Positions 17,734-46,235 of a stretch of DNA of 64,000 bases are shown one piece after another; the first letter of the stretch is position 1; each line of letters opens with the position of its first letter. The notes under the pieces were generated by a model that worked only from the letters and a program-made list of their open reading frames with translations, searched no databases and was not told the origin of the DNA. The stretch comes from Syntrophomonadaceae bacterium (GTDB lineage: Bacteria; Bacillota; Dethiobacteria; DTU022; UBA8154), in assembly GCA_003556225.1 (NCBI GenBank), contig PWRN01000027.1:10019-74018 (forward strand). The letters run 5' to 3'. Position numbers and translations under genes: made by a program.

Positions 17734-17756
17734 TCCTTTCCCGCGATGTTTGCAGT

Positions 17757-19767: not shown

Positions 19768-19785
19768 TTACGCAAGAACAAACTC

Positions 19786-19943: not shown

Positions 19944-20044
19944 AACAAGGGTTTATGTCTGAGCAAGCTTGATCATAAAGTAAAGAAATATGCTCCCATG
20001 TATAGAGAAAGATGCCGTGAGCACGGCTGCAGGGGCTCTTTTCG

Positions 20045-21361: not shown

Positions 21362-21364
21362 GGT

Positions 21365-22540
21365 TTACTCCTTATAGTTGAGATCCCGGGCAAAGCTGAC
21401 CCCTTCCAGCGATGCGGCAACACCCAGCAGGTCGGCAACTGTTGCTCCAAGGTCCGCAAAACTCTGGCGGGTGCCTAAAGAAATCGCCTTGACCTGCCGG
21501 CCGTAAACCAGCAGGGGAACATACTCCCTGGTGTGATCCGTGCCTGCAAAGGTCGGGTCGCAGCCGTGGTCAGCCGTGATAAAAAGCACATCTTCCTCGT
21601 GTAAGCGGCTGATGAAAGCCCTTAAAAATTGATCAAAAACTTCCAGCGCCCCCAAAAACCCCTTCACATCATTGCGGTGACCGTAGAGCATATCAAAATC
21701 AACCAGGGTCGCCCAGATGATCCCCCGAAAGGGTTGTTCGATACACCCCATCAAGCTTTGCATGATGCCTTTGTTACCCCGGTCTTGCTGGTGCCGCGTG
21801 ATTCCCTGTCCTGAAAAAATATCGTAGGCTTTGCCAACAACCCATACCTCGAGCCCGGCCTGGCTTACGGCATCCAACAAGGTCGGTGCGGGAGGCGGCA
21901 AAGAAAAGTCTTTCCGGTTCTCGGTGCGAAAGAAATGACCGGCCGATCCCTGAAAAGGGCGGGCAATCACCCTGCCCACGGCATGTTCCCCCAGGAAAAT
22001 CTCCTTCCGCGCCTTTACACACCAATCATAAAGGGTTTCCACGGGAACCACATCTTCGTGGGCTGCAACCTGGAAGACGCTGTCTGCTGAAGTATAGACG
22101 ATGGGCCGTCCAGTTTCCAGGTGCGCCTTACCCAGGTGGTTAATGATTTCCGTTCCCGATGCAGCCAAGTTGCCAAGGACCCTTTTTCCCACGTAGGCTT
22201 CAAAGGGAGTGATCACCGCTTCGGGAAAGCCTTGAGGATAAACGGGGAACGGTTGATCCACGGGAACACCTGCAAGTTCCCAGTGGCCGGAGATGGTATC
22301 CTTGCCGCGGGAACGCTGGGCCATTTTACCATAGGCGCCCCGGATCTGCGGGGTTGTCTCCAGGGACTCCACCAGTTCCCCCAGACCCAGGGAGACGAGG
22401 CCCGGCAGGGAATAACCTGGAGAAGCGGAGAGAACATGGCCCAGGGTATTGCTGCCCTCATCCCCGTACAGGTACGCATCGGGCAAGGCACCCACCCCCA
22501 GGCCGTCCAATACCAGGATTACGATACGATGCACGTTCAT
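21365..22540 (-). CDS. deoB: phosphopentomutase
   Basis: MNVHRIVILVLDGLGVGALPDA N-terminus and metal-binding motifs of the alkaline-phosphatase-like DeoB. 391 aa, adjacent to pdp. Confidence 0.9.
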   Translation of the reverse strand: MNVHRIVILVLDGLGVGALPDAYLYGDEGSNTLGHVLSASPGYSLPGLVSLGLGELVESLETTPQIRGAYGKMAQRSRGKDTISGHWELAGVPVDQPFPVYPQGFPEAVITPFEAYVGKRVLGNLAASGTEIINHLGKAHLETGRPIVYTSADSVFQVAAHEDVVPVETLYDWCVKARKEIFLGEHAVGRVIARPFQGSAGHFFRTENRKDFSLPPPAPTLLDAVSQAGLEVWVVGKAYDIFSGQGITRHQQDRGNKGIMQSLMGCIEQPFRGIIWATLVDFDMLYGHRNDVKGFLGALEVFDQFLRAFISRLHEEDVLFITADHGCDPTFAGTDHTREYVPLLVYGRQVKAISLGTRQSFADLGATVADLLGVAASLEGVSFARDLNYKE

Positions 22541-22602
22541 GTGATCACCCGTTTCCTAGCCCGGCGCTGGAAAAGGCTGGTCTGCAGTTCGCGGCAGCAC
22601 GT

Positions 22603-23490
22603 CTAGGCGCGAGGATGAGCCTGGTCATACACTTCCTTGATTTTCTTCCGCGTCAGCTGGGTGTAAATCTGAGTCGTGGAGATATCCGCATGACCCAGCA
22701 TCTCCTGGACTGAACGCAAATCTGCGCCATTTTCCAGCAAGTGGGTCGCGAAAGAATGGCGCAGCGTATGCGGCGTAATCTCTGCATTAATGCCTGCCCG
22801 GAGAACATACTTTTTTAATATCTTCCAGAACCCCTGCCGGGTTAAACGTTTACCGTGCTGGTTGAGAAAAAGTGCCTTTTCGTCCTGGTTCTTCAATAAT
22901 TTTCTGCGGCTGCGTGCTAAATAATCCTGCAAGCAATGGATGGCGACGGATCCCAGCGGGATCATTCTCTCTTTTCCACCTTTGCCATCACAGCGCAAGA
23001 ACCCCATTTTGATGTTGGCATGATTGAGGTTCAAGGACACCAGTTCAGAAACGCGGATCCCGGTCGCGTAGATGAGCTCCAGCATGGCTTTATCCCTGGT
23101 GCCAATTTCACAATTGGTCTGGGGTTGTTCCAGCAGAAGTTCGATATCGCTAAAGGAGAGCACATGGGGCAGTTTCTTTTCCATTCTCGGGGTTTCGAGC
23201 TCGATGGCGGGGTTTTCCTGAATAAACTGTTCTTTTAAAAGGAACTGGTAAAAGGATCGCAGGGAAGCGAGACTTCGGCCGATGGATGAAGGGGCCAGGC
23301 CGTTTTCTTGCTGCAGGTTTAAATAATCGCTGATCTGCTTCCTGGAAGTCTCTTTGAAGCATTGCACGTTGTTTTTTTGCAAGAAAGCCACATATTTTTT
23401 CAGGTCTCGCTGGTAAGACTCCAGGGTATTGTCGGCAAGTCCTTTTTCCACGGAAAGATGATAAATATATTCTTTCAAAAGCTGCTCCAT
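22603..23490 (-). CDS. xerD: site-specific tyrosine recombinase XerD (XerC/D family)
   Basis: C-terminal catalytic residues R...HTLRHSFATHLLENGADLRSVQEMLGHADISTTQIYT (R-H-R-Y). 295 aa, next to deoB as for Bacillus ripX. Confidence 0.8.
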   Translation of the reverse strand: MEQLLKEYIYHLSVEKGLADNTLESYQRDLKKYVAFLQKNNVQCFKETSRKQISDYLNLQQENGLAPSSIGRSLASLRSFYQFLLKEQFIQENPAIELETPRMEKKLPHVLSFSDIELLLEQPQTNCEIGTRDKAMLELIYATGIRVSELVSLNLNHANIKMGFLRCDGKGGKERMIPLGSVAIHCLQDYLARSRRKLLKNQDEKALFLNQHGKRLTRQGFWKILKKYVLRAGINAEITPHTLRHSFATHLLENGADLRSVQEMLGHADISTTQIYTQLTRKKIKEVYDQAHPRA

Positions 23491-23733
23491 CCGGTAATAA
23501 CCCCTTTACGATAATTCCGCGGCCTGGTGATTAGACCCGTCCAGGAAAAAACCGGTTATGTTCCTGCTTGCCATGAACCCACGGGATTGAAACGAAAAAA
23601 GAAAACCCTCGCGCAACTTTCTTGCCAGATTGCGCAACAATAACCAACTATTCCACGCGGCTGGTTAAAAACCCTTTAAAAATGTTTTGTCGGGATAACA
23701 ATCTTTTCATATCTTTAACCACAGTAGAAGACC

Positions 23734-24291
23734 CTACAATCCCAGGTATTGCCGTGCCATCAGCAGGCCGACAATGGTTTTTCCGTCTTCCACAACCCCG
23801 CTTTGAATTTTGGCGAGCCCTTCTTTCAGGGGAAAACTTTCCAGTAAAATAAATTCATCGTCCGGCTGGGCCACGGTCTTTTTTACTAGATCTTGTGCCA
23901 GGTAGATGTGAATCACTTCGCTGGAAAAGCCCGGCGACGGATAAAACGAAGTAAGCTTCACCAGTTTGTTGCTCGCAAACCCGATCTCTTCGGCCAATTC
24001 CCTTTGCGCACAGGCTTCCAGTGTTTCCCCTTTCTCGATCAGGCCCGCCGGTATTTCCAAGAGAACTTTCTCGGCAGCTTTCCTAAACTGGCGGATACAA
24101 AGCACTTCCTGATTATCATTGATAGGAATGATCGCCACCGCTCCTGCGTGCTCCACGATTTCACGCTTGCTTTCGTTGTCGTCGGGCAGGAGCACCTCAT
24201 CCACGCGCACGGTAACCACCTTACCGCGAAAGGGATAACTGGAGCGCAGCGTTTTTTCTTCAAGCTCCACCAGGAACACCTCTTTTCTCAT
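23734..24291 (-). CDS. nudF: ADP-ribose pyrophosphatase (Nudix hydrolase)
   Basis: Nudix box GLIEKGETLEACAQRELAEEIG (GX5EX7REUXEEXGU), 185 aa. Confidence 0.7.
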   Translation of the reverse strand: MRKEVFLVELEEKTLRSSYPFRGKVVTVRVDEVLLPDDNESKREIVEHAGAVAIIPINDNQEVLCIRQFRKAAEKVLLEIPAGLIEKGETLEACAQRELAEEIGFASNKLVKLTSFYPSPGFSSEVIHIYLAQDLVKKTVAQPDDEFILLESFPLKEGLAKIQSGVVEDGKTIVGLLMARQYLGL

Positions 24292-32071: not shown

Positions 32072-32707
32072 TTAACCGCGCCTTTGCTGCTGCGTGTTGG
32101 TTCCCCAAAAGGTAATTTTATCCATAGCTGTTAAAACCCGCGCCGCCGCAAAAACCACTTCCGTGGAATGATTGATCGCCAGGTACTTTCCCACGGCCTT
32201 TCCGCCTACGGTTATCGCGGCAATCATCCCCGCGAGAAAGATATTCAAGTACAGTTCGTTTATCCCCGGTCGGAGAAAGGCGAGGTTGATAATGATAAAG
32301 GCCCCGATGGTACCACTGATCACACCGCTGATATCCCCGATCACATCGTTACAAAAATTAGCCACTTTTTCAGCGTTTTTTACCAAATAGATTCCTTTTT
32401 TGGCGCCGTATATTTTTTTCGACGCCTTGGAGTGAAAGGGCATTTCATCCGCTGCCGCCACAGCCGTTCCAATGGTATCAAACAGGATTCCGATAAAAAT
32501 AATCATAAAAAGGATCAGGAAAGAAACAATGGTGGAATTGATCCCCTGCACGAGCAACCGGGTGATCAGAGCTAAACCAGAAGCCAAAAAAAAAGTCCAG
32601 ATACTGGCCTTAAGGATCCAGCGAACCGTTCTCTGCTTTCTCTGGGTTTGCTTGCTGTTGGCCAATACCCCCAACACCTCATAAGTAATAAAGGACTTAG
32701 GTGGCAA
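32072..32707 (-). CDS. oapA: DUF21 (CNNM-type) transmembrane-domain protein; candidate OLE-associated protein A
   Basis: About 200 aa with four predicted TM helices and no CBS/CorC domains, lying between the OLE-like noncoding interval and dxs. This matches the described oapA context. Confidence 0.55.
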   Translation of the reverse strand: MPPKSFITYEVLGVLANSKQTQRKQRTVRWILKASIWTFFLASGLALITRLLVQGINSTIVSFLILFMIIFIGILFDTIGTAVAAADEMPFHSKASKKIYGAKKGIYLVKNAEKVANFCNDVIGDISGVISGTIGAFIIINLAFLRPGINELYLNIFLAGMIAAITVGGKAVGKYLAINHSTEVVFAAARVLTAMDKITFWGTNTQQQRRG

Positions 32708-33346
32708 TCATGTGAGTAAACTTTACGGCTTCAGGTCCAGCAGGTTTTCCCAGATGCCTACCTCGCTGTTGCCAGCGGGCAGTTTCCTTTTAAAGACATC
32801 TCTGCCGTGTTGCCAGCGGCAGGGCTGGATTGCCACTAAGACCGCACTTTAATCCCCACATGATCTCCCACAGGTGGGAACAGTCTAGGAGTTTTCCTCG
32901 ATAGTGCATTTACGCTTCCTAGCCTCTTTTGCAGTCCTGGTTTCCTAAGGCAGGTTGCTGCCTTTCTCCCCGCAGGACCACTCAAGGCAGGCTACACTGT
33001 GCCCAGCGTCTGCCGCACACAGGTTCTAGCCTAAGCCGTAGCGCTTTCCCAGTAAGGCAATTAACCACGAACTTAGGTCTCCACGAAGGTAGGGTCAACG
33101 CCTACATGCCTTTGTAGATCGCCCCATCCTTCTTAACTCCCAGCACCAACCCCCGACTGGGCTTCGGCAGCCGGCACCAGGAACTTCATTGATGTGCCCT
33201 TTGGCGGATTTTTAGGCCCGCCTTCAGAAGCGTTTGCCTAACTAGAATACTGCACCACCTATGTCCCAAGTTAATTATAGCACACTGCCTTATTAATCTC
33301 AAGATTTTGCCAAATGCTTGCCCGTGATCATCGATCTGGCAATCCC
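32708..33346 (-). ncRNA. ole: candidate OLE (ornate large extremophilic) RNA; exact ends unknown
   Basis: 639-nt interval with no ORF of 60 aa or more in the gene direction, rich in local hairpins (e.g. AGGCAG-GTTG-CTGCCT, CTGCCG-N9-CGGCAG). It is flanked by ispA upstream and a DUF21 membrane-protein gene plus dxs downstream, within the nusB-folD-xseAB-ispA-[ole]-oapA-dxs-tlyA-nadK-recN arrangement that defines the OLE locus. RNase P, tmRNA and SRP core motifs were searched by eye and not found. Confidence 0.6.
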
Positions 33347-34312: not shown

Positions 34313-34576
34313 TTAAAAAGGATCATCCTCGCTGCTGAATTCTACTTTTGTCCCGTCTTCGAGCAGCAGCTCAACCTTTTCTTCCGCCTGACTCAGGATG
34401 TTTTTGCAGTGTTGGGTCAACTTCATCCCTTCCTGGAAGTTTTGCAGGGTTTCATCGAGGGTTAGCTCTTCCTTCTCCAGTTTTTCAACGGTGCTTTCCA
34501 GTTTTTTAATGGCCTCTTCAAAGGTTAAGTCTTCTAAAGGTTTTTTCGCCAAGGCAAATCTTCCTTCCTTAAACAA
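34313..34576 (-). CDS. xseB: exodeoxyribonuclease VII small subunit
   Basis: 87-aa coiled-coil protein (LTFEEAIKKLESTVEKLE...) immediately downstream of xseA. Confidence 0.85.
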   Translation of the reverse strand: MFKEGRFALAKKPLEDLTFEEAIKKLESTVEKLEKEELTLDETLQNFQEGMKLTQHCKNILSQAEEKVELLLEDGTKVEFSSEDDPF

Positions 34577-34593: not shown

Positions 34594-35811
34594 TTACTCG
34601 CCTGTTTTTTCAATTTCTTTGACCAGGCAGCGGGCCCGCCCATCGACAAAAATGACTTCTATTTCACGATTTTCTCTCAGAAGGCTGATGCCCTTGATCA
34701 GCTGCTGGTTTTCATCCACAACCAGGGCAAATCCCCGTCCCAAAACCCGCATCGGATCTAACGCCTGCAGGCGATCTTCCAGGTTTTTTACCGTGGCGCG
34801 CTTCAGCTGTAAATCGTATTTGATACCACGTGACATCCTCAACCATAGCTCATCAATCCTCTGCAGGTGGTAATAGATCTTATCTCGCAAATACCGGTGG
34901 AACCTGGCACTGGAAAGGTGCTTCAGCAGATGCAAGCGGCCTGCCAGGCTGTTTTTAACAGCGCGTTCCAAACGAACCTTCATGACCTGGACCTGTTTTT
35001 CCAGCTCATTCCTATCGGGAGCAATAAGCTCCGCCGCGGCAGTAGGCGTTGAAGCCCTGCAGTCGGCGACAAAATCTGCGATGGTAAAATCCGTTTCGTG
35101 ACCCACTGCTGAAATCACGGGAGTTCTTGCTTGAAAGATGGCCCGGGCAACGCCTTCATCATTAAAAGACCACAGCTCTTCCAGGGAACCACCCCCGCGG
35201 GTTATGACCAGCACATCAAATTCTCCCCGCCGGTCCATCACTTCCAGGGCCTGGACGATTTGTGCGGCAGAATCCTTTCCCTGGACAGCGACAGGATAGA
35301 TGGTCAACTGTATAAAAGGAAATCTCCGTCGCAGTGTTGTAATGAAATCTCGAACCGCTGCGCTGCCGGGCGAGGTGATTACGCCAACGTTCCCTGGAAT
35401 AGAGGGCAAGGGCTTTTTGTGCGCCGCATCAAAAAGCCCTTGTTCTTGCAATTTTTCTTTGAGCTGTTCAAAAGCCTGGTAGAGCGCCCCCTGTCCTTCG
35501 GGTTCCAGTTCCTCGATATAAAGTTGAAAATACCCGCCGCGTTCATAAATCGAGGTGCTGCCCCTGGCAATCACGCTCATGCCCTCGGCCGGTAAAAAGG
35601 TCAGATGTCTGTTCTTTTGTCTAAAAAAAACGGCCCGTAAGATCTGCTCCTCTTCTTTTAATGTAAAATACATATGCCCCGAGGGCTTGTGGTGTTTGAA
35701 ATTCGATATTTCACCCAGGACCTGGATGTCCTGTAAAAGGGCGTCTTGAAATAATATCTCTTTGAGGTAGCGGTTAACCTGGGATACACGGTAAATGGCA
35801 TCCTTTTTCAT
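34594..35811 (-). CDS. xseA: exodeoxyribonuclease VII large subunit
   Basis: N-terminal OB-fold (VSQVNRYLKEIL...GEISNFKHHKPSGHMYFTLKEE) and catalytic domain. 405 aa. Confidence 0.9.
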   Translation of the reverse strand: MKKDAIYRVSQVNRYLKEILFQDALLQDIQVLGEISNFKHHKPSGHMYFTLKEEEQILRAVFFRQKNRHLTFLPAEGMSVIARGSTSIYERGGYFQLYIEELEPEGQGALYQAFEQLKEKLQEQGLFDAAHKKPLPSIPGNVGVITSPGSAAVRDFITTLRRRFPFIQLTIYPVAVQGKDSAAQIVQALEVMDRRGEFDVLVITRGGGSLEELWSFNDEGVARAIFQARTPVISAVGHETDFTIADFVADCRASTPTAAAELIAPDRNELEKQVQVMKVRLERAVKNSLAGRLHLLKHLSSARFHRYLRDKIYYHLQRIDELWLRMSRGIKYDLQLKRATVKNLEDRLQALDPMRVLGRGFALVVDENQQLIKGISLLRENREIEVIFVDGRARCLVKEIEKTGE

Positions 35812-36650
35812 AACAGTTTACAAGCCTCGACCAAATTGTCTAAAAGCATTGCAATCGTTACGGGGCCAACGCCGCCCGTGATCGGGGTAATCCAACTGGC
35901 CTTTTCCTGCGCTTCACCGTGGTCCACGTCGCCCACCAGGCGAGTGCCAACCTGGCTCAGGCCGACGTCCACCACGATCGCGCCTTCTTTAACCATATCC
36001 CCTGTAATGGTATAGGGATGCCCCACAGCCACCACCAGGATGTCCGCTTGCTTGGTGAAGGCGGAAAGGTCCGGGGTCTGAGAATGGATGATGCTCACAG
36101 TTGCATTTCTTTCCAGCAGCATGAAGGCTACCGGTTTTCCTACAAGCTGGCTGCGCCCGACGACAACGGCCCTTTTGCCTTCAATCTTTTCACCGGTTGA
36201 GTCAATCAGCTTGATAATACCCTTGGCCACGAAAGGCGGCATATGGTGTTCCCCGATCAAGAAGTCTCCCATATTTATAAAATGCAGTCCTTCGACATCT
36301 TTGCGCGGTTCCACGATCTGTGAGATCAGGGTATGGTCCAGGTGAGGCGGTAGAGGATGGATGTTGATCCCGTGGACAAGATCGGTTTCATTGAGCCGTT
36401 CGATCAGGTGGACGATTTCTTCGTCTGTTGTGGTTTCGGGTAGGTTAAAAACCCGGCACTTGATCCCGAGTTGCCGGCACGTTCTTTCTTTCAATTGCGC
36501 AATATGCACCCGGCCGACGGGACTTTTCACGACAAGAATCGCCAAACCCGGTGTAATGCCTTTATCTGCATGCAAGGACTGGATATCTTGTTTGATTTTT
36601 TCCTTGACCTCGATTGCAGCCTGTTCTCCATTAATGATTTTTGCGGTCAT
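35808..36650 (-). CDS. FolD-family methylenetetrahydrofolate dehydrogenase/cyclohydrolase paralogue 1, divergent at conserved active-site motifs
   Basis: FolD fold with GRSQLVGKPVAFML, ADILVVAVG, GAIVVDVG and PITGGVGPVTIAML. Canonical motifs are altered: SxxYVxxK becomes VGRVHIAQLK, VQLPLP becomes NIHPLPP, DVDG becomes DVEG, and PCTP becomes PPFVAK. Confidence 0.7.
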   Translation of the reverse strand: MTAKIINGEQAAIEVKEKIKQDIQSLHADKGITPGLAILVVKSPVGRVHIAQLKERTCRQLGIKCRVFNLPETTTDEEIVHLIERLNETDLVHGINIHPLPPHLDHTLISQIVEPRKDVEGLHFINMGDFLIGEHHMPPFVAKGIIKLIDSTGEKIEGKRAVVVGRSQLVGKPVAFMLLERNATVSIIHSQTPDLSAFTKQADILVVAVGHPYTITGDMVKEGAIVVDVGLSQVGTRLVGDVDHGEAQEKASWITPITGGVGPVTIAMLLDNLVEACKLL

Positions 36651-36766
36651 TTTCGACCCCCTAGCGGCATTTCCAGCTTTGAGGCCAGCTGTGCAATCCC
36701 CTGGCCCCAAAGCTCACCACTTCACGGTTGAAATGCCTTATCTTCAAAGAACTCAACTTTTTTCGT

Positions 36767-37621
36767 TCAGCTTTCAAGATGTTTTTTAAACGCTTGCAGC
36801 GCATTCCACATCAACATGGTAATGGTGATGGGTCCTACGCCTCCAGGAACCGGCGATATCCAGCTCGCGACCTCCTTGGCCTGGTCAAAATCCACGTCAC
36901 CTACGAGCCTGTCCCCTACCTGGGTTACGCCTACATCGATCACGATGGCACCAGGTTTGATCCAGTCACCCTTGACCAACCCTGTCTGGCCCGCAGCAGC
37001 GACCAGGATATCCGCTTCGCGACAAATGTCCGCCAAGCCCACTGTTTTTGAATGACAGAGGGTTACGGAGGCATTTCTTCGCAGCAGAATCAGGGCCAGG
37101 GGCTTGCCCACGATGTTGCTGCGGCCAATCAAAACGGCGGACTTTCCATAGACCGGTTGCGTCGTATGTTCGATCATATGCAAAATACTGTGTGCCGTGC
37201 AGGCAATGAAGCCTTCTTCGTCGCTGAACAGCTTGCCCATATTAATGGGGTGCGTGCCGTCAATGTCTTTTTCAGGATCTATCGCGTTTAAGATGACGCG
37301 TTCGTCAAGGTGGTCCGGCAGGGGCAGCTGGACCATGAACCCATGGATTTTTTCGTCCTCGTTGAGTTCTTCTATCACCTCGAACAAATCATCCTGGGAG
37401 ATATCCTCAGGCAACCGCCGGACCTCTGAATAGAACCCCAGCTTTTTACTCTGCTTTTCTTTGTTGGTAACATATGACAGGGAAGCAGGATTTTGCCCGA
37501 CCAAGACAACGGCAAGACCGGGAGTCAGGCCCGTTTCATCATAGATGCGGCCCAACTCTTTCACAATTTCTGTGCGGACGCTTTCTGCCACTTCATCCCC
37601 TTTAATCAGGTTGGCGGGCAT
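36767..37621 (-). CDS. folD: bifunctional methylenetetrahydrofolate dehydrogenase/cyclohydrolase, paralogue 2
   Basis: Canonical PASLSYVTNKEK, MVQLPLP, DIDG, GRSNIVGKPLALIL and PVPGGVGPITITML motifs. The PCTP motif is replaced by ACTAHS. Confidence 0.8.
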   Translation of the reverse strand: MPANLIKGDEVAESVRTEIVKELGRIYDETGLTPGLAVVLVGQNPASLSYVTNKEKQSKKLGFYSEVRRLPEDISQDDLFEVIEELNEDEKIHGFMVQLPLPDHLDERVILNAIDPEKDIDGTHPINMGKLFSDEEGFIACTAHSILHMIEHTTQPVYGKSAVLIGRSNIVGKPLALILLRRNASVTLCHSKTVGLADICREADILVAAAGQTGLVKGDWIKPGAIVIDVGVTQVGDRLVGDVDFDQAKEVASWISPVPGGVGPITITMLMWNALQAFKKHLES

Positions 37622-37633
37622 CCAGCATACCTC

Positions 37634-38518
37634 CTAACTCTGGTTTAACCAGATCGCTGCCTCAACGGTATTATAAAGCAGCATGGTGACGGTCATCGGG
37701 CCTACTCCCCCCGGTACCGGGGTAATATAAGAAGCTTTTTCCGCAACGGGTTCATAATCAACGTCTCCAGCCAGGCGGAAACCGCTCTTTTTCGATGAAT
37801 CTGGAACACGATTAACACCGACGTCAATCACCACGGTGCCTTCGTTTACCATATCTGCCGTGATCGCATTTGGACGCCCCATGGCAGCCACCAAAATATC
37901 CGCTTGCTTGGTATAATAGCTGATGTCCTTGGCCCCGGTATGAACCACGGTAACGACGGCATTGGCCCCTTCTGCTTTTTGCATTAAAATCGCGGCTAAA
38001 GGTTTTCCAACAATATTGCTGCGTCCACAAACAACGACGTGTTTCCCGGCGGGATCATTCCCGGAGCGGACCAGGAGCTGCTTTACGCCGTGGGGCGTGC
38101 AGGGTAGGGGACAGGGCTCTCCCCGCAGCAATTTGCCCAGGTTAACGGGATGAAAACCGTCTACATCTTTTTCCGGTGAAATATAACCGATGACGCGGTC
38201 AACGCTGATGTGGTCCGGTAGGGGAAGCTGGACAAGAATACCACTGATTTTCGGGTCCTTGTTCAGTCCATCAACGGTCTTCAATACCTCTTCTTCTGTC
38301 GCATCTGCCGGCAGTCGAATGGTCTCTTCATACAAGCCGATCTCTTCGCATCCCTTTGCTTTGCTGGTGACATACGAAACCGAAGCGGGATCTTCACCCA
38401 CAAGCACGACACCCAGTCCGGGAACAATACCCTTCTCCTTCAATTCAGCGACTTTTTGCTTTAACTCTCCCCTGATTTCTTCTGCGACCTGTTTTCCGGA
38501 AATAACTTTTGCTGCCAT
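37634..38518 (-). CDS. folD: bifunctional methylenetetrahydrofolate dehydrogenase/cyclohydrolase, canonical copy
   Basis: All FolD hallmarks are present: PASVSYVTSKAK, LVQLPLP, DVDGFHPVNLG, PCTPHG, GRSNIVGKPLAAIL, PVPGGVGPMTVTML. Confidence 0.85.
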   Translation of the reverse strand: MAAKVISGKQVAEEIRGELKQKVAELKEKGIVPGLGVVLVGEDPASVSYVTSKAKGCEEIGLYEETIRLPADATEEEVLKTVDGLNKDPKISGILVQLPLPDHISVDRVIGYISPEKDVDGFHPVNLGKLLRGEPCPLPCTPHGVKQLLVRSGNDPAGKHVVVCGRSNIVGKPLAAILMQKAEGANAVVTVVHTGAKDISYYTKQADILVAAMGRPNAITADMVNEGTVVIDVGVNRVPDSSKKSGFRLAGDVDYEPVAEKASYITPVPGGVGPMTVTMLLYNTVEAAIWLNQS

Positions 38519-38547
38519 TGTTCAACCTCCTTGATTTTATAATATCC

Positions 38548-41500
38548 TTATGCTTGAAGACCTTTTTCCTCAAAATACTGCACGAACCATTTTTCTACGC
38601 TATCCACCCATTTCTCCGCCTGGAATGCAGCCACGTGATTAAGGGGTAAGCTGAAGGCAATCTTGCCTTTCGCCTGCGCAAAATCCTGGACGGTACAAAT
38701 GGGTCGCCCCCCCGGCCAGAAATAGCCTTCATCCGCGGCATCCAGGGTTGTGCCTTTAAAGATGGGCGCCAGGGTGCGGATTTCTTCCCAAACATCTTCC
38801 AGGGATTTGATTTTTTGTTGATAGCCCATGTATTCCATCAGCTTGATGAGTATTTCCCAGTTTTCTCGGCCCGTCAGCGGCTTTATGGCCGGATTGATTT
38901 TTTGGATCAAGCGCTCGCTGTTGGTGTAACTTCCCGTGGTTTCTGCAAAAGAAGCGGCCGGAAGAACGACATCGGCTTTTTTTGCAATCTCCGTCAAAAA
39001 AAGATCCTGCACGACCAGCAGTTCAGCCTGGGCCAGTTTGTCGATCCAGGCGCTCTTAATATCTTCGCCGAAAACGAAAACACCTTTAATGGTCTTCTTT
39101 TCCAGCCCTTCCAGGACCTGCTGCGTGTTTTTCCCTGCTGCCGGGGGAACCTCTGTCTTCCACTTATCGGAGAACTTGCTGCGGATCTCGGGATCGTCCG
39201 CCTGCTGGTAACCGGTTAAATAACGGGTCGAAACACCCATATCCAGCATACCCTGGCTGTTGCACCGCTCCCGCAGGAAGATAATGCCGCGGCGAGGTTT
39301 ACCAACTTTTCCAAGCAGGGTCACAAAGCCGGCCAACAGCTGCGCCGCTTCCGGGGCCAGGTTATTGCTCCCCATGACCAGCATGGGAGTCTTCGCGGCG
39401 GCATAGCGCTCCACCAGGTCGGCAATATCTTGTTCTGTTATCCCGCTGCCGGAGAGCAGCTCATCCATGGATTGCTTACTCAGCCAGGCCTCCAGGGTGG
39501 CAAAATTCTCTGTGTACTCTTGCACGAAGGCCTGGTCTACCAACCCTTTTTCTTTTAAATAAAGGAGCAGGGCGGCAAACAGGGAAACCGAAGCCTGGTC
39601 CTCGGCCTTTAAAAATCGGGCGGCGTACTTCTTCAACTTCACGTCTCGATTGTCGACCACCCATAATGTTGCCCCTTTCTCCACCGCTTGCTTGATTTTC
39701 AAGGCGGCGATGGGATAGTCAGGAAAATCCGCGCCCACGGTCAGGATAAAGTCCGCCGTGCCAATTTCTTCGTACGAGTTGGTCGATGCGTCCCAACCGA
39801 ACATTTCTGCCAGGGGATTTACAGGTTCCGCTGTGCTGTTAATGTTGTTTGTTCCCAGGGTTGCCCGGGCAAACTTCTGGATGAGATAGCTTTCTTCATT
39901 ACTGTGCCTGGGGCTGGAAAAAACAGCCAGGCTTTCTCCTCCAAAACGGGCCTTCAGGGATTTAAACTTCTTGGTAATATGCACCAGCGCATCTTCCCAG
40001 GAGGTTTCCCTTAGTTGTCCGTTTTCACGGATCAGGGGCTTGCGAATCCGCTCCGGGCTGTTGACGTATTCGAAACCAAACCGACCTCGTTTACAGAGTA
40101 ACCCCTGGTTGACCGGGCCTTCCCCGGGCACAACCCGGGCCAGCGTATCCCCGATCGTTTCAATGTTAATGCTGCATCCCACCCCGCAATATCCACAGGT
40201 GGAAGCCGTATGCTTCAGTTCCCAGGGGGCCGGCTTGGTGAAAGGCATCCGCTCAACCAGGGCTCCCGTGGGACAAACCGCCACGCACTGCCCGCACGTG
40301 ACACAACTGGTTTCTTCCAGGGGGAGGTCCAGCGAGGGGCTAACATAGGCATCAAATCCCCGGTTCACCAGCCCCAATGCTTCGGCACCGATCACCTCTG
40401 CACAGGTTCGCACACAAAGGCCGCAGAGGATGCATTTATTGGGTTCACGGAAAATGAAGGGATGTTCTTCATTTTCGTAATCGTGTTTTTCACCCATGAT
40501 TCTCTCGGGATGGGCATCGTATTCCGTCGCATAAGATCTCAGCCTGCATTCAAAAACATCCAGGCAGCCACACTCCAGGCAGCGCTCCCCGTCCTTGGAA
40601 GCGCTCTCCGGCGTTAATCCTTTCTCCACTTCCCGGAAATTTTTCACGCGGACTTCCGCGGGGACCAGGGGCATCTTGACTTTTTCCACGGTCTCCAGGT
40701 CAGCAAAATCTTCCTCGGTAAGCCCTTCCTTGATAATATTATAGTGCGTCTTGTAGGGCATGACCTCTCCGTTTAAGTAATGATTGACAACCTCTGCCGC
40801 TCGTTTTCCGGCGGCAATGGCATCAATAGCAATGGCCGGGCCGGTCACAGCATCACCGCCAGCGAAAACCCCGGGCACGTTGGTCAAGAACGTATCTTCC
40901 TGAATATCGATGGTATTCCATTTATTGGTTCCCACATCATCTTTGATCTTGTCAATCACAACGTCCTGGCCGATGGCAGCGATAATCGTGTCCACTTCCA
41001 CGGTAAAAAAGGAATCGGGAATGGGAACGGGGCGGCGCCTTCCGGATTCGTCGGGTTCCCCGAGTTCCATTCTCTGGCAGACCACCCGCTGCGCCTGGCC
41101 CTCGCCCTCAATCTGCACGGGGTTGGCCAGCAGGTGCAGTTCAACGCCTTCTTCATCGGCTTCGATGACTTCAATTTCCTGTGCAGGCATTTGTTCCCGG
41201 GCCCTGCGGTAGATCACCATCACCTGGTCAGCGCCGAGACGCTTGGCAGTGCGGGCGGCGTCCATGGCCGTGTTCCCGCCGCCAATAACTGCAACCTTGC
41301 TCCCCAGGGTCACTTCTTCATTTAACATCACGGCCCTTAAGAACTCGGTGCCGCCCTGCACGCCCGGCATATCCTCGCCCGGCACACCCATCCTGCGGCT
41401 GTTTTGAGCTCCAATGGCCAGGTAGACTGCGTCGTAACCGTTCTTGAAAAGGTAGTCGATGGTGAAATCTTCTCCCAGCTGCAGCCCTGTCTTGGCCTCC

Positions 41501-42273
41501 ACGCCCAGGTCCAGCACCAGCTGGATTTCCGCGCCCAAGACAGCCTTGGGGAGCCTGTACTCTGGAATACCATAGCGCAGCATCCCTCCCAGCTCGGGCA
41601 GGGCTTCAAAAATGGTCACCTGGTGCCCGCTGCGCCTCAAGAAATACGCCGCAGTAATGCCGGCAGGCCCTGACCCGACCACGGCGACTTTCTTGCCCGT
41701 TTCAGGAGCCACGGCAGGCAGGTAGGGTTCTTCACTGGCCAGGTCCAGGTCCCCGATCAACCGCTTCATGTAGCGAATGGCCACGGGTCCTTCCTTCAAG
41801 TTGCGCCGGCAGTCTTCCTCGCAGGGAGCAGGGCAAACCCGACCGATAGAAGCCGGAATGGGCATGAACTCCTTGACCAGGATCAAGGCATCCCGGTACT
41901 GCTTGTTGGCGACCAGGGCGGCATATCCCTGGGCATCACAGTTGGCGGGACAGGCCATGACACATGGAGCCCGACAGTCCCCGCTGTGATCAGAGAGAAT
42001 AAGTTCCAAGGCCAGCTTGCGGGCCTTGCGAATTTTTTCATTTTCCGTTTGAACCACCATGCCATCTGTTACTTTTGTTGCACAGGCTCTCAGCAACCTG
42101 GGCATCCCTTCGATCTCTACCAGGCACAGGCCGCAAGAAGCATAGACATCCGTATTGCCACTGAAACATAGCGTCGGAATATGAATACCGTGTTCCGTCG
42201 CGATATCCAATACGGTTTGGTCCGAAAGGCCGGCAAGTTCACGGCCATTGATATTTAGTCTGACTTGACTCAT
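38548..42273 (-). CDS. 1241-aa multidomain Fe-S flavoprotein: 2Fe-2S ferredoxin N-terminus, GltD/NfnB/SfrB-like NAD(P)H-FAD oxidoreductase, two [4Fe-4S] ferredoxin motifs, and a formate-dehydrogenase/NuoG-like molybdopterin-fold domain lacking the catalytic Cys/Sec
   Basis: NuoG/HndD-type N-terminus (NINGRE...HIPTLCF...CGLC). Dinucleotide folds VAVVGSGPAGITAAYFL and VAVIGGGNTAMDAA. CLECGC/CILCGLCVRTC/CVTCGQCVAVCPTG clusters. Fdh-type CGYCGVGCS...LCKRGRF motif. Where FdhF carries CARVCHGPS (Sec/Cys-His), this protein has STAEPVNPLAEM, and the C-terminal MopB_CT portion is short. Confidence 0.7.
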   Translation of the reverse strand: MSQVRLNINGRELAGLSDQTVLDIATEHGIHIPTLCFSGNTDVYASCGLCLVEIEGMPRLLRACATKVTDGMVVQTENEKIRKARKLALELILSDHSGDCRAPCVMACPANCDAQGYAALVANKQYRDALILVKEFMPIPASIGRVCPAPCEEDCRRNLKEGPVAIRYMKRLIGDLDLASEEPYLPAVAPETGKKVAVVGSGPAGITAAYFLRRSGHQVTIFEALPELGGMLRYGIPEYRLPKAVLGAEIQLVLDLGVEAKTGLQLGEDFTIDYLFKNGYDAVYLAIGAQNSRRMGVPGEDMPGVQGGTEFLRAVMLNEEVTLGSKVAVIGGGNTAMDAARTAKRLGADQVMVIYRRAREQMPAQEIEVIEADEEGVELHLLANPVQIEGEGQAQRVVCQRMELGEPDESGRRRPVPIPDSFFTVEVDTIIAAIGQDVVIDKIKDDVGTNKWNTIDIQEDTFLTNVPGVFAGGDAVTGPAIAIDAIAAGKRAAEVVNHYLNGEVMPYKTHYNIIKEGLTEEDFADLETVEKVKMPLVPAEVRVKNFREVEKGLTPESASKDGERCLECGCLDVFECRLRSYATEYDAHPERIMGEKHDYENEEHPFIFREPNKCILCGLCVRTCAEVIGAEALGLVNRGFDAYVSPSLDLPLEETSCVTCGQCVAVCPTGALVERMPFTKPAPWELKHTASTCGYCGVGCSINIETIGDTLARVVPGEGPVNQGLLCKRGRFGFEYVNSPERIRKPLIRENGQLRETSWEDALVHITKKFKSLKARFGGESLAVFSSPRHSNEESYLIQKFARATLGTNNINSTAEPVNPLAEMFGWDASTNSYEEIGTADFILTVGADFPDYPIAALKIKQAVEKGATLWVVDNRDVKLKKYAARFLKAEDQASVSLFAALLLYLKEKGLVDQAFVQEYTENFATLEAWLSKQSMDELLSGSGITEQDIADLVERYAAAKTPMLVMGSNNLAPEAAQLLAGFVTLLGKVGKPRRGIIFLRERCNSQGMLDMGVSTRYLTGYQQADDPEIRSKFSDKWKTEVPPAAGKNTQQVLEGLEKKTIKGVFVFGEDIKSAWIDKLAQAELLVVQDLFLTEIAKKADVVLPAASFAETTGSYTNSERLIQKINPAIKPLTGRENWEILIKLMEYMGYQQKIKSLEDVWEEIRTLAPIFKGTTLDAADEGYFWPGGRPICTVQDFAQAKGKIAFSLPLNHVAAFQAEKWVDSVEKWFVQYFEEKGLQA

Positions 42274-42331
42274 GCGCTTAACTCCACCCCTTTACTGTTA
42301 AATATGAACATGGTTTTGAGCACTTTTTTTA

Positions 42332-44110
42332 TTATTCCACGATTACCGAGTCAAAATTACAGGCATCGAAGCAGTTCCCGCACTTTATGCACTTTTCCTG
42401 TTCGATCACGTGCACTTCCTTCTTCTCACCCGTAATCGCTTCCGTGGGACAGCGCTTCACACAGCGCGTACAGCCGGTGCAGAGTTCCGGGTCAATGGTA
42501 TAGGTGAGCAGTTCGCGGCAAACCTTGGCCGGACACCGTTTATCCATGATATGGGCTTCGTATTCATCCCGGAAATAAAGCAGCGTCGATAAGACAGGAT
42601 TTGGTCCGGTTTGACCCAATCCACAAAGGGCCCCTTCCTTGACGTTCAAGGCAATTTCTTCCAGCAGCTCCAGTTCTTCGGGCTGAGATTTGCCCTCGGT
42701 GATCCTGTTTAAGATTTCCAGCATCCGTTTCGTTCCCAGGCGGCAGTGGACACATTTTCCGCAGGATTCGTTCTGGACAAAATTCAAGAAGAAACGGGCC
42801 ATATCCACCATGCAGGTCGTTTCGTCCATCACGATCATCCCACCGGAACCCATGATCGCTCCCGTTTTCACCAGGGATTCGTAGTCAACGGAAGTATCCA
42901 GCAAACTCTCTGGAACACACCCACCCGAGGGGCCACCCAGCTGGACGCCTTTGAATTTCTTATCGTCCCTGATGCCTCCGCCTACTCCAAAGATGACGTC
43001 CCGCAAGGAGATACCCATGGGAACTTCGATCAAGCCCCCCCGCTTCATCTTACCGGCCAGGGCAAACACCTTTGTTCCCTTGCTTTTTTCCGTTCCAAAG
43101 GCAGCGAATTTTTCTGCGCCGTTGTAGATGATCCAGGGCACGTTGGCAAAGGTTTCCACGTTGTTGATGCAAGTGGGTTTCTGCCATAATCCCTTCTCCG
43201 CCGGGAAGGGGGGTTTTAAGCGCGGCATCCCGCGCTCTCCTTCCAGGGAGGCGATCAGTGCGGTTTCTTCACCGCATACAAAGGCTCCCGCCCCTTTCTT
43301 GATCTTCATGTGAAACGAAAAGTCTGTCCCGAGAATGTTGTCTCCCAGCAAGCCGGCTTCCTTTGCGTCTTTCATCGCGATTTCCAGGCGGGTAATGGCC
43401 AGGGGATATTCGGCCCGAACATAAACATGACCTTCATTTGAACCGACAGCATAGGCAGCCAGTAGCATTCCTTCCACGATGGCGTGCGGATCACCCTCAA
43501 TGATACTACGGTCCATGAAGGCCCCGGGGTCTCCTTCATCGGCGTTGCAGACAATGTACTTTTTATCTCCCGGGTTTTGCCGGGTAAAGCGCCATTTTAA
43601 ACCAGTGGGAAAACCGGCTCCGCCCCGCCCCCGCAGGCCGGATTTTAGAACTTCTTCGATCACATCTTCGGGGGTCATTTCTTTCAATGCTTTTTCCAGG
43701 GCCTTGTACCCGTCGCGTTCCCTGTATTCTTCCAGGGATTCCGGGTTGATGATGCCGCAATTGCGCAGGGAAATGCGGTTTTGGGTCCCCACAACCCCCT
43801 CCCTTTCCTCGTTCATGAGCAGGTCAGCCACGGGTTGACCCTGAACCAGGTGCTCATTCACGATGCGGGCGGCATTTTCTTCTGTGACGTCACCGTAAGA
43901 AAAAAGCTTGCCATCGGGCGTGATCACATCCACGATGGGTTCGCGGTAGCACATCCCGACACAGCCGGTTTTTTCCAGGGATACATCGATGTCAGCTTTT
44001 TCCAGCTCTTTTTCCAGCACATCGTACGTCTTGTACCCACCGGCGGCAATCCCGCAGGTACTGAGTCCTACTTTGACTAAAGTTTTATCGTGATCGTGCA
44101 ATACAGACAC
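42332..44110 (-). CDS. NuoF/HndC/HydB-like NADH-binding FMN flavoprotein subunit with an N-terminal thioredoxin-like [2Fe-2S] region and C-terminal 2x[4Fe-4S]
   Basis: GRGGAGFPTGLKW (FMN/NADH site), the cluster-N3 motif ESCGKCVHCRLG, and C-terminal CTGCTRCVKRCP...CIKCGNCFDAC ferredoxin motifs. 592 aa. Confidence 0.8.
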   Translation of the reverse strand: MSVLHDHDKTLVKVGLSTCGIAAGGYKTYDVLEKELEKADIDVSLEKTGCVGMCYREPIVDVITPDGKLFSYGDVTEENAARIVNEHLVQGQPVADLLMNEEREGVVGTQNRISLRNCGIINPESLEEYRERDGYKALEKALKEMTPEDVIEEVLKSGLRGRGGAGFPTGLKWRFTRQNPGDKKYIVCNADEGDPGAFMDRSIIEGDPHAIVEGMLLAAYAVGSNEGHVYVRAEYPLAITRLEIAMKDAKEAGLLGDNILGTDFSFHMKIKKGAGAFVCGEETALIASLEGERGMPRLKPPFPAEKGLWQKPTCINNVETFANVPWIIYNGAEKFAAFGTEKSKGTKVFALAGKMKRGGLIEVPMGISLRDVIFGVGGGIRDDKKFKGVQLGGPSGGCVPESLLDTSVDYESLVKTGAIMGSGGMIVMDETTCMVDMARFFLNFVQNESCGKCVHCRLGTKRMLEILNRITEGKSQPEELELLEEIALNVKEGALCGLGQTGPNPVLSTLLYFRDEYEAHIMDKRCPAKVCRELLTYTIDPELCTGCTRCVKRCPTEAITGEKKEVHVIEQEKCIKCGNCFDACNFDSVIVE

Positions 44111-44133
44111 CTCCCAGGTCCCTTTGCTTTGGA

Positions 44134-44652
44134 TTATTCATTTTCATTTTGCTCATCTGTTTTTCCTCGAAAATCCTTCAATATCTTACGGGTCGACTTT
44201 GGTGTTAACATCGCATAGGTTTCACCATCAATTAACATCACCGGGGAAAGACTGCAGCAGCCAATACAGGCGACTTCTTCATAAGTAAACAATCCATCAC
44301 CGGTTGTTTCCCCGCCTTTAATACCCAGCTCATCCGTGATCGTATTACCCACCAGCTTTGCGCCGTTAACATGGCAGGCCGTGCCAACGCATAGCATGAT
44401 GGTGTGCTTCCCCTTGGGCTGCAGGCGAAACTGGGCATAAAAAGTGGCGATGCCGTAAATTTTTGCGGGTGACACCCCCAGCTGATCACCGAGATACCCG
44501 ATGCCTTCTTTAGGAACGTAATCAAGTGCTTCCTGGATGTCCTGGAGGATCGGAATGATCGCACTGGGATCGCCCTTGTACGTATCCAGGACGCGGTCAA
44601 TCGTTTCATAAGGTATGGCTTCGGACTCCAGGGATTTCTCTGTTGCGGCCAT
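44134..44652 (-). CDS. NuoE/HndA/HydC-like thioredoxin-fold [2Fe-2S] subunit
   Basis: CVGTACHVNGA...CIGCCSLSPVM cysteine pattern of NuoE-type 2Fe-2S proteins. About 170 aa. Confidence 0.8.
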   Translation of the reverse strand: MAATEKSLESEAIPYETIDRVLDTYKGDPSAIIPILQDIQEALDYVPKEGIGYLGDQLGVSPAKIYGIATFYAQFRLQPKGKHTIMLCVGTACHVNGAKLVGNTITDELGIKGGETTGDGLFTYEEVACIGCCSLSPVMLIDGETYAMLTPKSTRKILKDFRGKTDEQNENE

Positions 44653-44869
44653 AAAAACAACTCCTTTTCTAATATAGTTCAAAAAGATTGACGCATTGTT
44701 TCAAGTAAAATGCAAAAAAAGAACAAGCAGCGTGAAACCTGGACGAAACAACAGTACTGCTAATTGATCCTTCGAGATGGTAAAAATATTTTTAAATTTA
44801 TAATTTAAAATTTCGTCGCCAAGCGGAAATATCCTCTCTCCCCCTAAAATTCGCAATATTCTTTCTTGA

Positions 44870-45824: not shown

Positions 45825-46235
45825 CTAAAATTCTCCTTTTAGGTGTTTCCTGATCCTGTCGAGAACACCATTGACAAAACGACTCGCTTCTTCATCCTGG
45901 TAGATTTTGGCCAGTTCGATGGCTTCGTTAATGGATACCTTTTCCGGAATTTCCTCAACATACATGATCTCATAAATTCCGATGCGCAGGATATTGCGCA
46001 CCACGGGTGAGAGTCGATCCAGTTTCCAGTTGATTAAATGTTCCTTCAATATGCGGTCCAGTTCACCGCGGTGTTGTAAAATTCCCTGGAAAGAAGAACG
46101 AAAGTAGGCCGTTTCCTGGGCTCGTTCAGCTATTCCCTGCAGAAAATAGTTCTCCACGTCTTCCGGTTCATTTTCTCCAATCTCAATCATAAAGAGCGCT
46201 TTAAATAAATTTTCCCTGGCCCTCCTCCGCTTCAA
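45825..46235 (-). CDS. nusB: transcription antitermination factor NusB
   Basis: 136 aa with MKRRRARENLFKALF and the NusB helical pattern. Lies downstream of asp23/amaP/DUF2273 as in Bacillus yqhY-yqhZ. Confidence 0.85.
   Translation of the reverse strand: MKRRRARENLFKALFMIEIGENEPEDVENYFLQGIAERAQETAYFRSSFQGILQHRGELDRILKEHLINWKLDRLSPVVRNILRIGIYEIMYVEEIPEKVSINEAIELAKIYQDEEASRFVNGVLDRIRKHLKGEF

Follow-up and report, generated by a model that had tools for sequence, protein, structure and literature searches.

Ferredoxin-dependent transhydrogenases set the balance of NADPH, NADH, and ferredoxin for acetogens and for syntrophic acetate oxidisers that live near the thermodynamic limit. We describe here a locus that adds a gene context to these enzymes. 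It lies in a 64,000-nucleotide stretch of DNA (the window) from a Syntrophomonadaceae bacterium (contig PWRN01000027.1), where genes for a predicted StnABC-type transhydrogenase stand directly upstream of three tandem folD genes, between nusB and xseA. The Stn/NfnABC family to which the trio is assigned has already been purified, assayed, and structurally solved (PMC7483475, PMC10482914, PMC11829005, PMC12018979). StnC of Sporomusa ovata carries FAD and NADPH sites (GxGxxA) along with H-x3-C-x3-C-x3-CP and C-x2-C-x-C...C motifs (PMC7483475). An N-terminal 2Fe-2S domain and a C-terminal dicluster domain are the marks of the HydB-type bifurcating module (PMC10482914). Two precedents connect such enzymes to one-carbon (C1) metabolism. 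The methylene-tetrahydrofolate (methylene-THF) dehydrogenase of S. ovata is NADP-specific (PMC7483475). In Moorella thermoacetica, Nfn is encoded by Moth_1517/1518 (PMC7483475) and FolD by Moth_1516, an adjacency inferred from the consecutive locus tags. Our reading of the locus, to which we assign a probability of about 0.7, is that a bifurcating StnABC transhydrogenase was inserted into the nusB-folD-xseA region and ties the NADP(H) of the FolD-dependent C1 step to the NADH and ferredoxin pools.

An StnABC-type transhydrogenase upstream of folD

An earlier sequence-only reading of this DNA had placed six consecutive open reading frames (ORFs) on the minus strand at 35808-44682, and they are present there. 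Between nusB with its TsaD-like neighbor and xseA, the gene order is NuoE-like, NuoF-like, a 1241-aa fusion, folD1, folD2, and folD3 (Table 1), and the ORFs together with Pfam bear out every domain that had been named in this same-strand array. The redox trio is, by sequence, an orthologue of the StnABC/NfnABC (Bfu) ferredoxin-dependent transhydrogenases, because it matches every chain of 8OH5 and 9BOV over the full length and keeps the diagnostic motifs. The proposal of an Nfn- or Stn-type module for NADH, NADPH, and ferredoxin is thus upheld at the level of homology. The identities of the PDB entries (8OH5, 8OH9, 9BOV, 9BP5) were checked against their source papers. All the diagnostic features of StnABC known from S. 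ovata are present in the trio of the window, which is about 44% (StnC), 65% (StnB), and 52% (StnA) identical to the Sporomusa silvacetica locus.

StnA matches solved chains over nearly its full length (9BOV_C, E 2.5e-55; 8OH5_A, E 1.9e-49). In StnB, Pfam finds a weak 2Fe-2S_thioredx match at residues 7-86, Complex1_51K and NADH_4Fe-4S at 155-325 and 436-520, and Fer4 at 537-587. The NuoF core therefore bears an N-terminal thioredoxin-like 2Fe-2S domain and a C-terminal 2x[4Fe-4S] ferredoxin domain. Residues 12-592 align onto 3-584 of 8OH5_B (E 2.6e-277), and the match to NfnABC of Caldicellulosiruptor saccharolyticus has an E of 2.3e-267. StnC matches 9BOV_A with 1090 bits and 8OH5_C with 1046 bits (E 0 for both). 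Its Pfam architecture runs from Fer2_4 through Fer4_20, Pyr_redox_2, and Fer4_Nqo3/Fer4_7 to Molybdop_Fe4S4 and Molybdopterin. The GltD-like insertion shows the FAD motif GSGPAG and the NADPH motif GGGNTA (GxGxxA) in translation, and resembles NfnB structures (4YLF_B, E 2e-89; 5JCA_L, E 1e-82).

The conservation of Fe-S ligands was read from an alignment of 12 StnC homologues that are 46-70% identical. In addition to the four invariant cysteines of the N-terminal domain, H96-x3-C-x3-C-x3-CP and C565-x2-C-x-C-x5-C are invariant, and so are C614/617/620/624 and C657/660/663/667. The fusion architecture described earlier therefore stands, and the inventory of two 4Fe-4S motifs that went with it was incomplete, as StnC holds more Fe-S sites. 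Classical NfnAB, in which an FNR/PyrK-like NfnA with 2Fe-2S and FAD is paired with a stand-alone NfnB of about 470 aa, is absent from the locus in the window: no NfnA homologue was found by tblastn, and likeness to NfnB is confined to the internal domain of StnC. The layout also departs from that of SfrAB, with its separate formate dehydrogenase (FDH)-like and GltD-like subunits; here the two are fused in StnC, which is preceded by the NuoE-like and NuoF-like genes.

The C-terminal half of StnC resembles a formate dehydrogenase. Residues 685-1241 were searched alone against solved structures, and they align to true FDHs, namely FdhF of the T. kivui HDCR (7QV7_S), an F420-dependent FDH (9T1S_L), and E. 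coli FdhH. A 5-residue gap in StnC falls exactly opposite the Sec/Cys-His loop ('rlcha' of 7QV7_S and 'rlxhs' of 9T1S_L). The FDH chains run 150-210 residues past the end of StnC, and the C-terminal pterin-binding domain PF01568 has no Pfam match in StnC. The deleted catalytic loop and the absent domain IV all but rule out a bona fide Mo/W formate dehydrogenase. By homology, this part of StnC would be a structural and Fe-S scaffold, in line with the non-catalytic domain that had been proposed.

Exchange of StnABC and NfnAB upstream of the folD array

Species-representative genomes were scanned with a StnC alignment, which returned 80 loci from many phyla with 35-69% StnC identity. One of them (L002), a soda-lake 'Syntrophomonadaceae bacterium' metagenome-assembled genome (MAG) with 69% StnC identity, has the same triple folD array. 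A further locus with this array (L169) is 99.8% identical to L002 in DNA, and the two are counted as one lineage. In the close clade, three of four further lineages have stnABC directly upstream of one or two folD genes at the nusB|xseA site. These four loci (L082-L085) were retrieved through StnC homologues, so the sample is unbiased for folD. The arrangement is nusB-stnABC-FolD1-xseA in L084 (StnC 59% identical), nusB-stnABC-FolD2-like-FolD3-xseA in L085 (60%), and nusB-tsaD-like-stnABC-FolD1-FolD2::deaminase in the Dethiobacter sp. locus L082 (70%). The co-occurrence of the fusion with folD that the sequence-only reading had suggested looking for in other genomes thus recurs in L002/L169, L082, L084, and L085. 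In the fourth lineage (L083, StnC 67% identical), stnABC lies near rnf. There, at 14325-23783, the genes after stnABC encode a histidine kinase and a response regulator, RnfC, D, G, E, and A, an FNR-like ferredoxin reductase, and a multihaem cytochrome.

In a second group of lineages, an nfn gene pair takes the place of stnABC in the slot between nusB and the folD array. This is the case in six of six lineages (L086, L087, L088, L170, L171, and L172), which are mutually distinct, with 76-87% DNA identity where they can be aligned. Several of these loci originate from biogas metagenomes. The array is FolD1-FolD2-FolD3 in five of them and FolD1-FolD3 in L086. The L087 pair, with which the pairs of the remaining five loci share 85-93% identity, encodes full-length NfnAB (NfnB against 4YLF_B, E 2e-180; NfnA against 5JCA_S, E 4e-98). 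Judged by NusB and XseA, lineages with Stn and lineages with Nfn stand at about the same distance from the window. The whole comparison of linkage covers 11-12 independent lineages.

StnABC and NfnAB are structurally different enzymes with the same net reaction, and by homology one stands in for the other at the same site upstream of the FolD array. This in-place swap is the strongest available evidence that transhydrogenase activity itself is selected beside folD. The exchange of two analogous enzymes at one site argues for a functional link between transhydrogenase and FolD. Since the two enzymes are unrelated and share an activity, the comparative evidence for a tie to the NADP-dependent methylene-THF dehydrogenase step is unusually clean.

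Three distinct types of FolD

Each of the three FolD proteins has both THF_DHG_CYH domains above the Pfam gathering scores. For typing, the copies in the window were aligned with those of ten related loci. Residues are numbered as in human MTHFD1; human and E. coli sequences served as references, and the mapping was cross-checked by HMMER alignments to the solved FolDs 3P2O and 3L07. The earlier count of three paralogues is right, and what needs revision is their treatment as equivalent copies, as by alignment they sort into three distinct orthologous types. Y52-x3-K56, Q100, and D125 are all kept in FolD1 and FolD2, and FolD3 keeps only K56 of these. By these residues, the label of a bifunctional FolD fits two of the three proteins. 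Mutagenesis of MTHFD1 in the MacKenzie laboratory reportedly assigned Q100 and K56 to the cyclohydrolase reaction and D125 to folate binding. None of the three proteins reaches the NCBIfam FolD equivalog cut-off of 333 (FolD1 comes closest with 332.4 against PRK14186, followed by FolD2 with 326.4 and FolD3 with 274.2); these models are clade-specific, and the miss of FolD1 and FolD2 is weak evidence.

FolD1 has the canonical signature of S49, Y52-x3-K56, Q100, D125, and C147, with the NADP-type residues R173/S174. It is the most conserved protein of the locus. FolD1 of the window shares 86-89% identity with its counterparts in L002, L082, L086-L088, and L170-L172. Across these lineages, the corresponding figures are only about 51-57% for NusB and XseA and about 70% for StnC. 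Such constraint is unusually strong for a FolD, and recent gene exchange between lineages is an alternative explanation. FolD2 has orthologues that diverge fast (44-72% identical), with erosion of the active site in several of them: K56C/D125E in L002, Y52A/D125G/R173H in L087, and Y52S/D125G in L088.

FolD3 differs most. It has S49R, a lost tyrosine in the Y-x3-K motif (H-[IV]-A-x-L-K), Q100H with a 1-aa deletion, D125E, and C147F/Y, and it keeps K56, R173, S174, and S197. In a search of 5.8 billion proteins, this signature was present in all 52 best clusters (at least 53% identity), and all lower matches (at most 51%) were canonical. A metagenome scan with a FolD3 alignment and a generic pattern gave matches that, among those listed, were all canonical FolDs of at most 49% identity. 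The gene is always found immediately before xseA. These features point to a small conserved subfamily in which the residues of the NADP site appear intact and the pterin pocket is remodelled, and the chemistry at the folate site may well be changed.

The idea that FolD2 and FolD3 are decaying pseudogenes in the window was rejected, as their ORFs are intact and, from genome to genome, they vary less than NusB and XseA. Both are diverged paralogues under purifying selection. In the Dethiobacter sp. MAG (L082, 14714-16171), the gene call of the FolD2 type spans 485 aa and includes a fused C-terminal part of the A_deaminase (adenosine/AMP-deaminase) family. It is followed by a urocanase gene (16535-17146) in place of folD3 and xseA. 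This arrangement hints at a link to histidine or formimino-C1 metabolism, unless it stems from a frameshift or from a join made in assembly.

Proposed coupling to C1 metabolism

The proposed mechanism builds on the gene content, homology, FDH-site loss, FolD types, and comparative linkage observed here, and we infer enzyme activity, co-transcription, flux direction, and what FolD2 and FolD3 do. By homology to the solved enzymes, hydride would be exchanged at the FAD/NADP(H) site in the GltD-like insertion of StnC. Single electrons would then run through the Fe-S chain of StnC to the FMN of StnB. The StnAB module (NuoF/NuoE-like, HydBC-like) would couple NAD+/NADH with ferredoxin in a reversible manner. 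The expected net reaction is NADH + 2 Fd(red) + 2 NADP+ + H+ <-> NAD+ + 2 Fd(ox) + 2 NADPH. FolD1, with its NADP-type residues, is predicted to interconvert methylene-, methenyl-, and formyl-THF with NADP(H). At the methenyl/methylene-THF step, it would use NADPH in the reductive direction and make NADPH in the oxidative direction.

MAGs of Dethiobacteria carry the Wood-Ljungdahl pathway (WLP), and organisms of this group in soda lakes and biogas reactors have been proposed to be syntrophic acetate oxidisers with a reversed WLP. The transhydrogenase would supply NADPH when the C1 step runs reductively, as in acetogenesis. When it runs oxidatively, as may be the case in syntrophic acetate oxidation, NADPH would be drained into NADH and reduced ferredoxin. 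Co-expression may keep the turnover of NADP(H) at the C1 step stoichiometrically linked to the NADH and ferredoxin pools.

A more far-reaching version can be put forward tentatively. The selected unit in this lineage could be a four-part C1/redox module made of an interchangeable Nfn or Stn and three specialised FolD-fold proteins, with a new function for FolD3 and perhaps also for FolD2. FolD3 might be a monofunctional dehydrogenase without cyclohydrolase activity, or an enzyme for a different C1-pterin or substrate. It might also form a heterodimer with FolD1, or dock on the transhydrogenase for direct handover of NADPH. If true, such a module could help explain a near-equilibrium, reversible methyl branch in syntrophic acetate oxidisers of the Dethiobacteria.

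Weighing the alternatives

Several observations weigh against a selected coupling of StnABC to FolD. The NADP specificity of the FolDs was read from a few residues known from the human enzyme. Of the 80 StnC loci scanned, L002 alone has folD within 10 kb, and the 79 more distant ones have none at that range. The Stn-folD linkage is therefore lineage-specific and not a general property of Stn. Even a close relative, L083, has stnABC and no folD. The Nfn-bearing loci were found through FolD3; the presence of folD there is not independent, and what counts is the identity of the upstream gene. As folD is ancestral at the nusB-xseA site, part of the conservation reflects vertical inheritance. No WLP genes were found within the 64-kb window. 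In addition, folD1 of the nearly identical MAG GCA_003567715.1 has a TAG stop at codon 146 in place of AAG (Lys) in the window (38083; 14191 in the locus record L001), and the gene is consequently called there as two fragments. That genome also carries the change G61D in folD1 (38337 in the window; 13937 in L001), and all three of its stnC differences are synonymous. The TAG codon is either an assembly or consensus error or real variation. The link of transhydrogenase to folD proposed by the sequence-only reading thus holds within the close clade and is mirrored by NfnAB in sister lineages, and it does not extend to most Stn loci elsewhere.

These points raise the possibility that the enzyme is a genuine Stn whose adjacency to folD is a historical accident, in which a permissive housekeeping site hosts a general NADPH supply with no C1 coupling. 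The scarcity of folD near other Stn loci, the folD-free L083, and the housekeeping character of a window that lacks WLP genes would all fit an accident. The 217-bp leader suggests that stn brought or acquired its own promoter, and Acetobacterium woodii has Stn yet does not use NADPH in its WLP (Kremp et al., PMC7483475). We nevertheless hold an accident to be unlikely, since at least 11 species-level lineages have one or the other of two non-orthologous transhydrogenases in the same slot upstream of the folD array. The distance to folD1 stays short (21-118 bp), the FolD array is expanded only in this context, and Moorella and S. ovata offer precedents.

The same replacement by NfnAB bears on a proposal of another kind, that the complex acts in vivo as an NADPH-dependent reductase of Fe(III), sulfur/polysulfide, or O2, similar to SfrAB or NsoABCD and in keeping with the lifestyle of Dethiobacter. 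Close homologues are publicly annotated as 'NADPH-Fe(3+) oxidoreductase subunit beta', but these names are automatic annotations. Nso is highly similar to Stn (Kremp et al., PMC7483475), the stnABC genes of L083 lie near rnf and multihaem cytochromes, and D. alkaliphilus respires iron and sulfur (PMC10376724). On the other hand, the NuoE/NuoF-like bifurcating module is complete, down to the N-terminal 2Fe-2S domain and the C-terminal dicluster. The two bacterial relatives that have been characterised are transhydrogenases, and the NfnAB replacement points to a shared Nfn activity, which makes a reductase quite improbable. There is next to no chance that StnC is an NAD(P)-linked Mo/W formate dehydrogenase that feeds formate to the folate pathway via the FolDs. 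Pfam does match Molybdopterin and Molybdop_Fe4S4, and JGI annotations read 'formate dehydrogenase major subunit'. The NCBIfam model Fdh-alpha (TIGR01591) gives 381 bits, far under its cut-off of 666. The Sec/Cys-His pentapeptide and the C-terminal pterin-binding domain are missing, and the Stn of S. ovata had no formate:methyl viologen activity (Kremp et al., PMC7483475). A transhydrogenase coupled to the C1 step remains the reading that we prefer.

Organization of the locus and its flanks

Table 1. Genes, domains, and leader of the stn-folD locus, with positions in the window
Feature	Position	Strand	Basis or remark
nusB	45825-46235	(-)	Pfam NusB
TsaD/Kae1-like paralogue, 317 aa	44870-45823	(-)	Pfam TsaD
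stnA leader, 217 bp, AT-rich	44653-44869	(-)	Sequence read; candidate promoter region
stnA (= NfnC/BfuC), NuoE-like, thioredoxin-like [2Fe-2S] subunit, 172 aa	44134-44652	(-)	Pfam PF01257 (2Fe-2S_thioredx), E 1e-48
stnB (= NfnB/BfuB), NuoF-like FMN/NAD(H) subunit	42332-44110	(-)	Pfam and PDB
stnC (= NfnA/BfuA), predicted NADPH-input subunit, 1241 aa	38548-42273	(-)	Pfam and PDB
StnC 1-95, [FeFe]-hydrogenase/NuoG-type N-terminal [2Fe-2S] domain	41989-42273	(-)	Fer2_4, E 7e-19; C36, C47, C50, C64 invariant
StnC 96-576, GltD/NfnB-like insertion, two [4Fe-4S] sites, FAD and NADPH sites	40546-41988	(-)	Fer4_20, Pyr_redox_2
StnC 605-672, NuoG/Nqo3-type 2x[4Fe-4S] ferredoxin-like domain	40258-40461	(-)	Fer4_Nqo3, Fer4_7
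StnC 687-1241, FDH-like, non-catalytic	38551-40215	(-)	Molybdop_Fe4S4 cluster kept; catalytic loop and C-terminal pterin-binding domain lost
folD1, canonical, 294 aa, two loop insertions	37634-38518	(-)	Pfam domains, 213 and 142 bits
folD2, 284 aa, canonical active site in the window	36767-37621	(-)	Pfam; FolD alignment
folD3, FolD-fold, 280 aa, distinct subfamily	35808-36650	(-)	Catalytic-domain Pfam score 83.6 bits, weakest of the three
xseA	34594-35811	(-)	Pfam Exonuc_VII_L; gene calls
xseB	34313-34552	(-)	Gene calls

The probable start of stnA is ATG 44652 (Shine-Dalgarno sequence AAAGGAG) and that of folD3 is ATG 36650 (AGGGGG), and public gene calls agree with both. For stnB, we use GTG 44110, and the public gene call has 44101. 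With the revised starts, the intergenic gaps from stnA to folD3 are 23, 58, 29, 12, and 116 bp, and the folD3 stop and the xseA start overlap by 4 bp. The gaps are less uniform than the 20-60 bp given before. Co-transcription of stnABC and folD1-3 is plausible because of these short gaps and the 4-bp overlap. The array does lie in the interval between nusB and xseA, and its supposed adjacency to nusB has to be amended, as a TsaD/Kae1-like gene and the AT-rich leader stand between nusB and stnA. The TsaD-like ORF starts 1 nt past the nusB stop. The protein scores below the NCBIfam TsaD cut-offs (147 versus 207.8 bits) and is probably a divergent paralogue. A gene of this kind occurs at this position in the window and in L082 (65% identity) only, and it is absent from L084-L088 and L169-L172.

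No terminator-like hairpin was found in any gap from stnA to xseA. A scan for sigma-70 promoters and intrinsic terminators gave counts that were not above those of shuffled sequences, with nothing convincing in the gaps. Neither the stnA leader nor the folD2-folD3 gap contains a riboswitch or other known RNA, as no Rfam family reached its gathering threshold. Sites for the Rex operator TTGTGAAnnnnTTCACAA were not found near the operon, and their count across the window is that expected by chance. The stnA leader contains the near-palindrome ATATTGCGAATtT at 44847-44859 (-). A near-palindrome of the form ATATTGCGAAT(A/T)T is common to the window, L082, and L169, where it stands at the 5' end of the leader. 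The 5-3-5 palindrome ATATTGCGAATAT is exact in L082 (7419-7431) and L169 (1843-1855), has one mismatch in the window, and was not found in any other locus compared. The leaders of the Nfn-bearing loci share another conserved block, GGACTTTTTTGTTATTATGGCGAA. The ATATTGCGAATAT palindrome and the GGACTTTTTTGTTATTATGGCGAA block are candidate regulatory sites.

The synteny nusB-folD-xseAB-ispA-dxs is ancestral and of housekeeping character. The remainder of the 64-kb window consists of ordinary firmicute housekeeping genes: der, an ispH-S1 fusion, cmk, trpS, scpA, xerD, recN, nadK, dxs, efp, and aroQ. The named relatives of its proteins are 'Dethiobacter sp.' and soda-lake 'Syntrophomonadaceae' MAGs, and by these names the uncultured host probably belongs to the Dethiobacteria. 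Contig PWYV01000007.1 (NCBI MAG GCA_003567715.1) is nearly identical to the window, with 18 differences in 23.7 kb.

Three further features of the window were observed. A full-length OLE RNA lies at 32685-33274 (-), with 486 bits and an E of 1.5e-139 (Rfam, gathering threshold). It sits between ispA and an ORF for a membrane protein of about 200 aa (32072-32707, (-)), just upstream of dxs, as is classical for OLE and oapA. Upstream of this RNA, at 33302-33274 (-), is the best sigma-70-like match of the region, TTGAGA-17-TATAAT with an extended TG. At 9518-12277 (-), a single 919-aa ORF joins IspH/LytB to four S1 RNA-binding domains in an ispH-rpsA-type fusion. The G+C content rises to 0.575 at 40001-42000, in the GltD-like part of stnC, versus about 0.51-0.52 in the flanks. 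The rise probably reflects the composition of Gly/Ala-rich Rossmann folds and not gene transfer.

Comparison with known systems

The view of the sequence-only reading that the fusion protein was uncharacterised does not hold, since StnC has been purified and its structure solved. Its triple-folD context was not found described, and precedents exist for the linkage to C1 metabolism. In the literature that could be searched, which is partially covered, no description was found of the FolD3 subfamily, of an array with three types of FolD, or of Stn and Nfn replacing each other at a single site. For 'Ca. Syntrophonatronum acetioxidans' and 'Ca. Contubernalis alkaliaceticus', the genome papers discuss the WLP of Dethiobacteria and are silent on folD, Nfn, Stn, NADPH, and transhydrogenase. 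The locus assigns an Nfn/Stn-type transhydrogenase to the Dethiobacteria, as judged by homology, and it draws attention to a small conserved subfamily of FolD whose active site is altered.

The FolDs of the window share both domains and the Rossmann NADP site with bifunctional FolD (E. coli 1B0A, human MTHFD1 1A4I, and C. jejuni 3P2O). Unlike these, FolD3 and the 52 related clusters replace S49, Y52, Q100, D125, and C147. The presence of three tandem FolD types in one operon is unusual.

The modules of StnC have been met in other combinations. The Sfr enzyme is made of two subunits, with a separate FDH-like (SfrA) and GltD-like (SfrB) chain and no NuoE/NuoF partners. StnC of the window joins GltD-like and FDH/NuoG-like modules, a combination also seen in Geobacter SfrAB and Thermococcus NsoABCD. 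In contrast to SfrAB, the modules are fused in StnC and a complete HydBC-like bifurcating pair lies alongside. The Nso of Thermococcus is probably an Stn (Kremp et al., PMC7483475). Classical NfnAB (Thermotoga maritima 4YLF and Pyrococcus furiosus 5JCA) has the same net reaction, and the GltD-like insertion of StnC is a homologue of its NfnB. It differs in having two small subunits and bifurcation at the FAD of NfnB, with neither a NuoE/NuoF module nor a NuoG/FDH-like domain.

Within the family itself, the archaeal Tsi NfnABC (9N5U; PMC12018979), a member of the Bfu family, has a shorter large subunit of 963 aa. NfnABC of C. saccharolyticus (9BOV/9BP5; PMC11829005) is the best-scoring solved relative of StnC and StnA of the window, with the same reaction and architecture. 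Its naming differs (NfnA = StnC, NfnB = StnB, and NfnC = StnA), and its host is a sugar fermenter. StnABC of S. ovata (8OH5/8OH9; PMC7483475, PMC10482914) has the same three subunits, gene order, domains, and motifs, and the same non-catalytic FdhF-like domain; its StnC has 1172 aa versus 1241 aa in the window. The S. ovata genes are also C1-linked, as they lie directly downstream of the WLP cluster (PMC7483475). The stn genes of the window do not lie beside metVF. They stand in the nusB-folD-xseA housekeeping locus, directly upstream of three folD genes. The enzyme itself belongs to a known family, and its gene context is what appears to be new.

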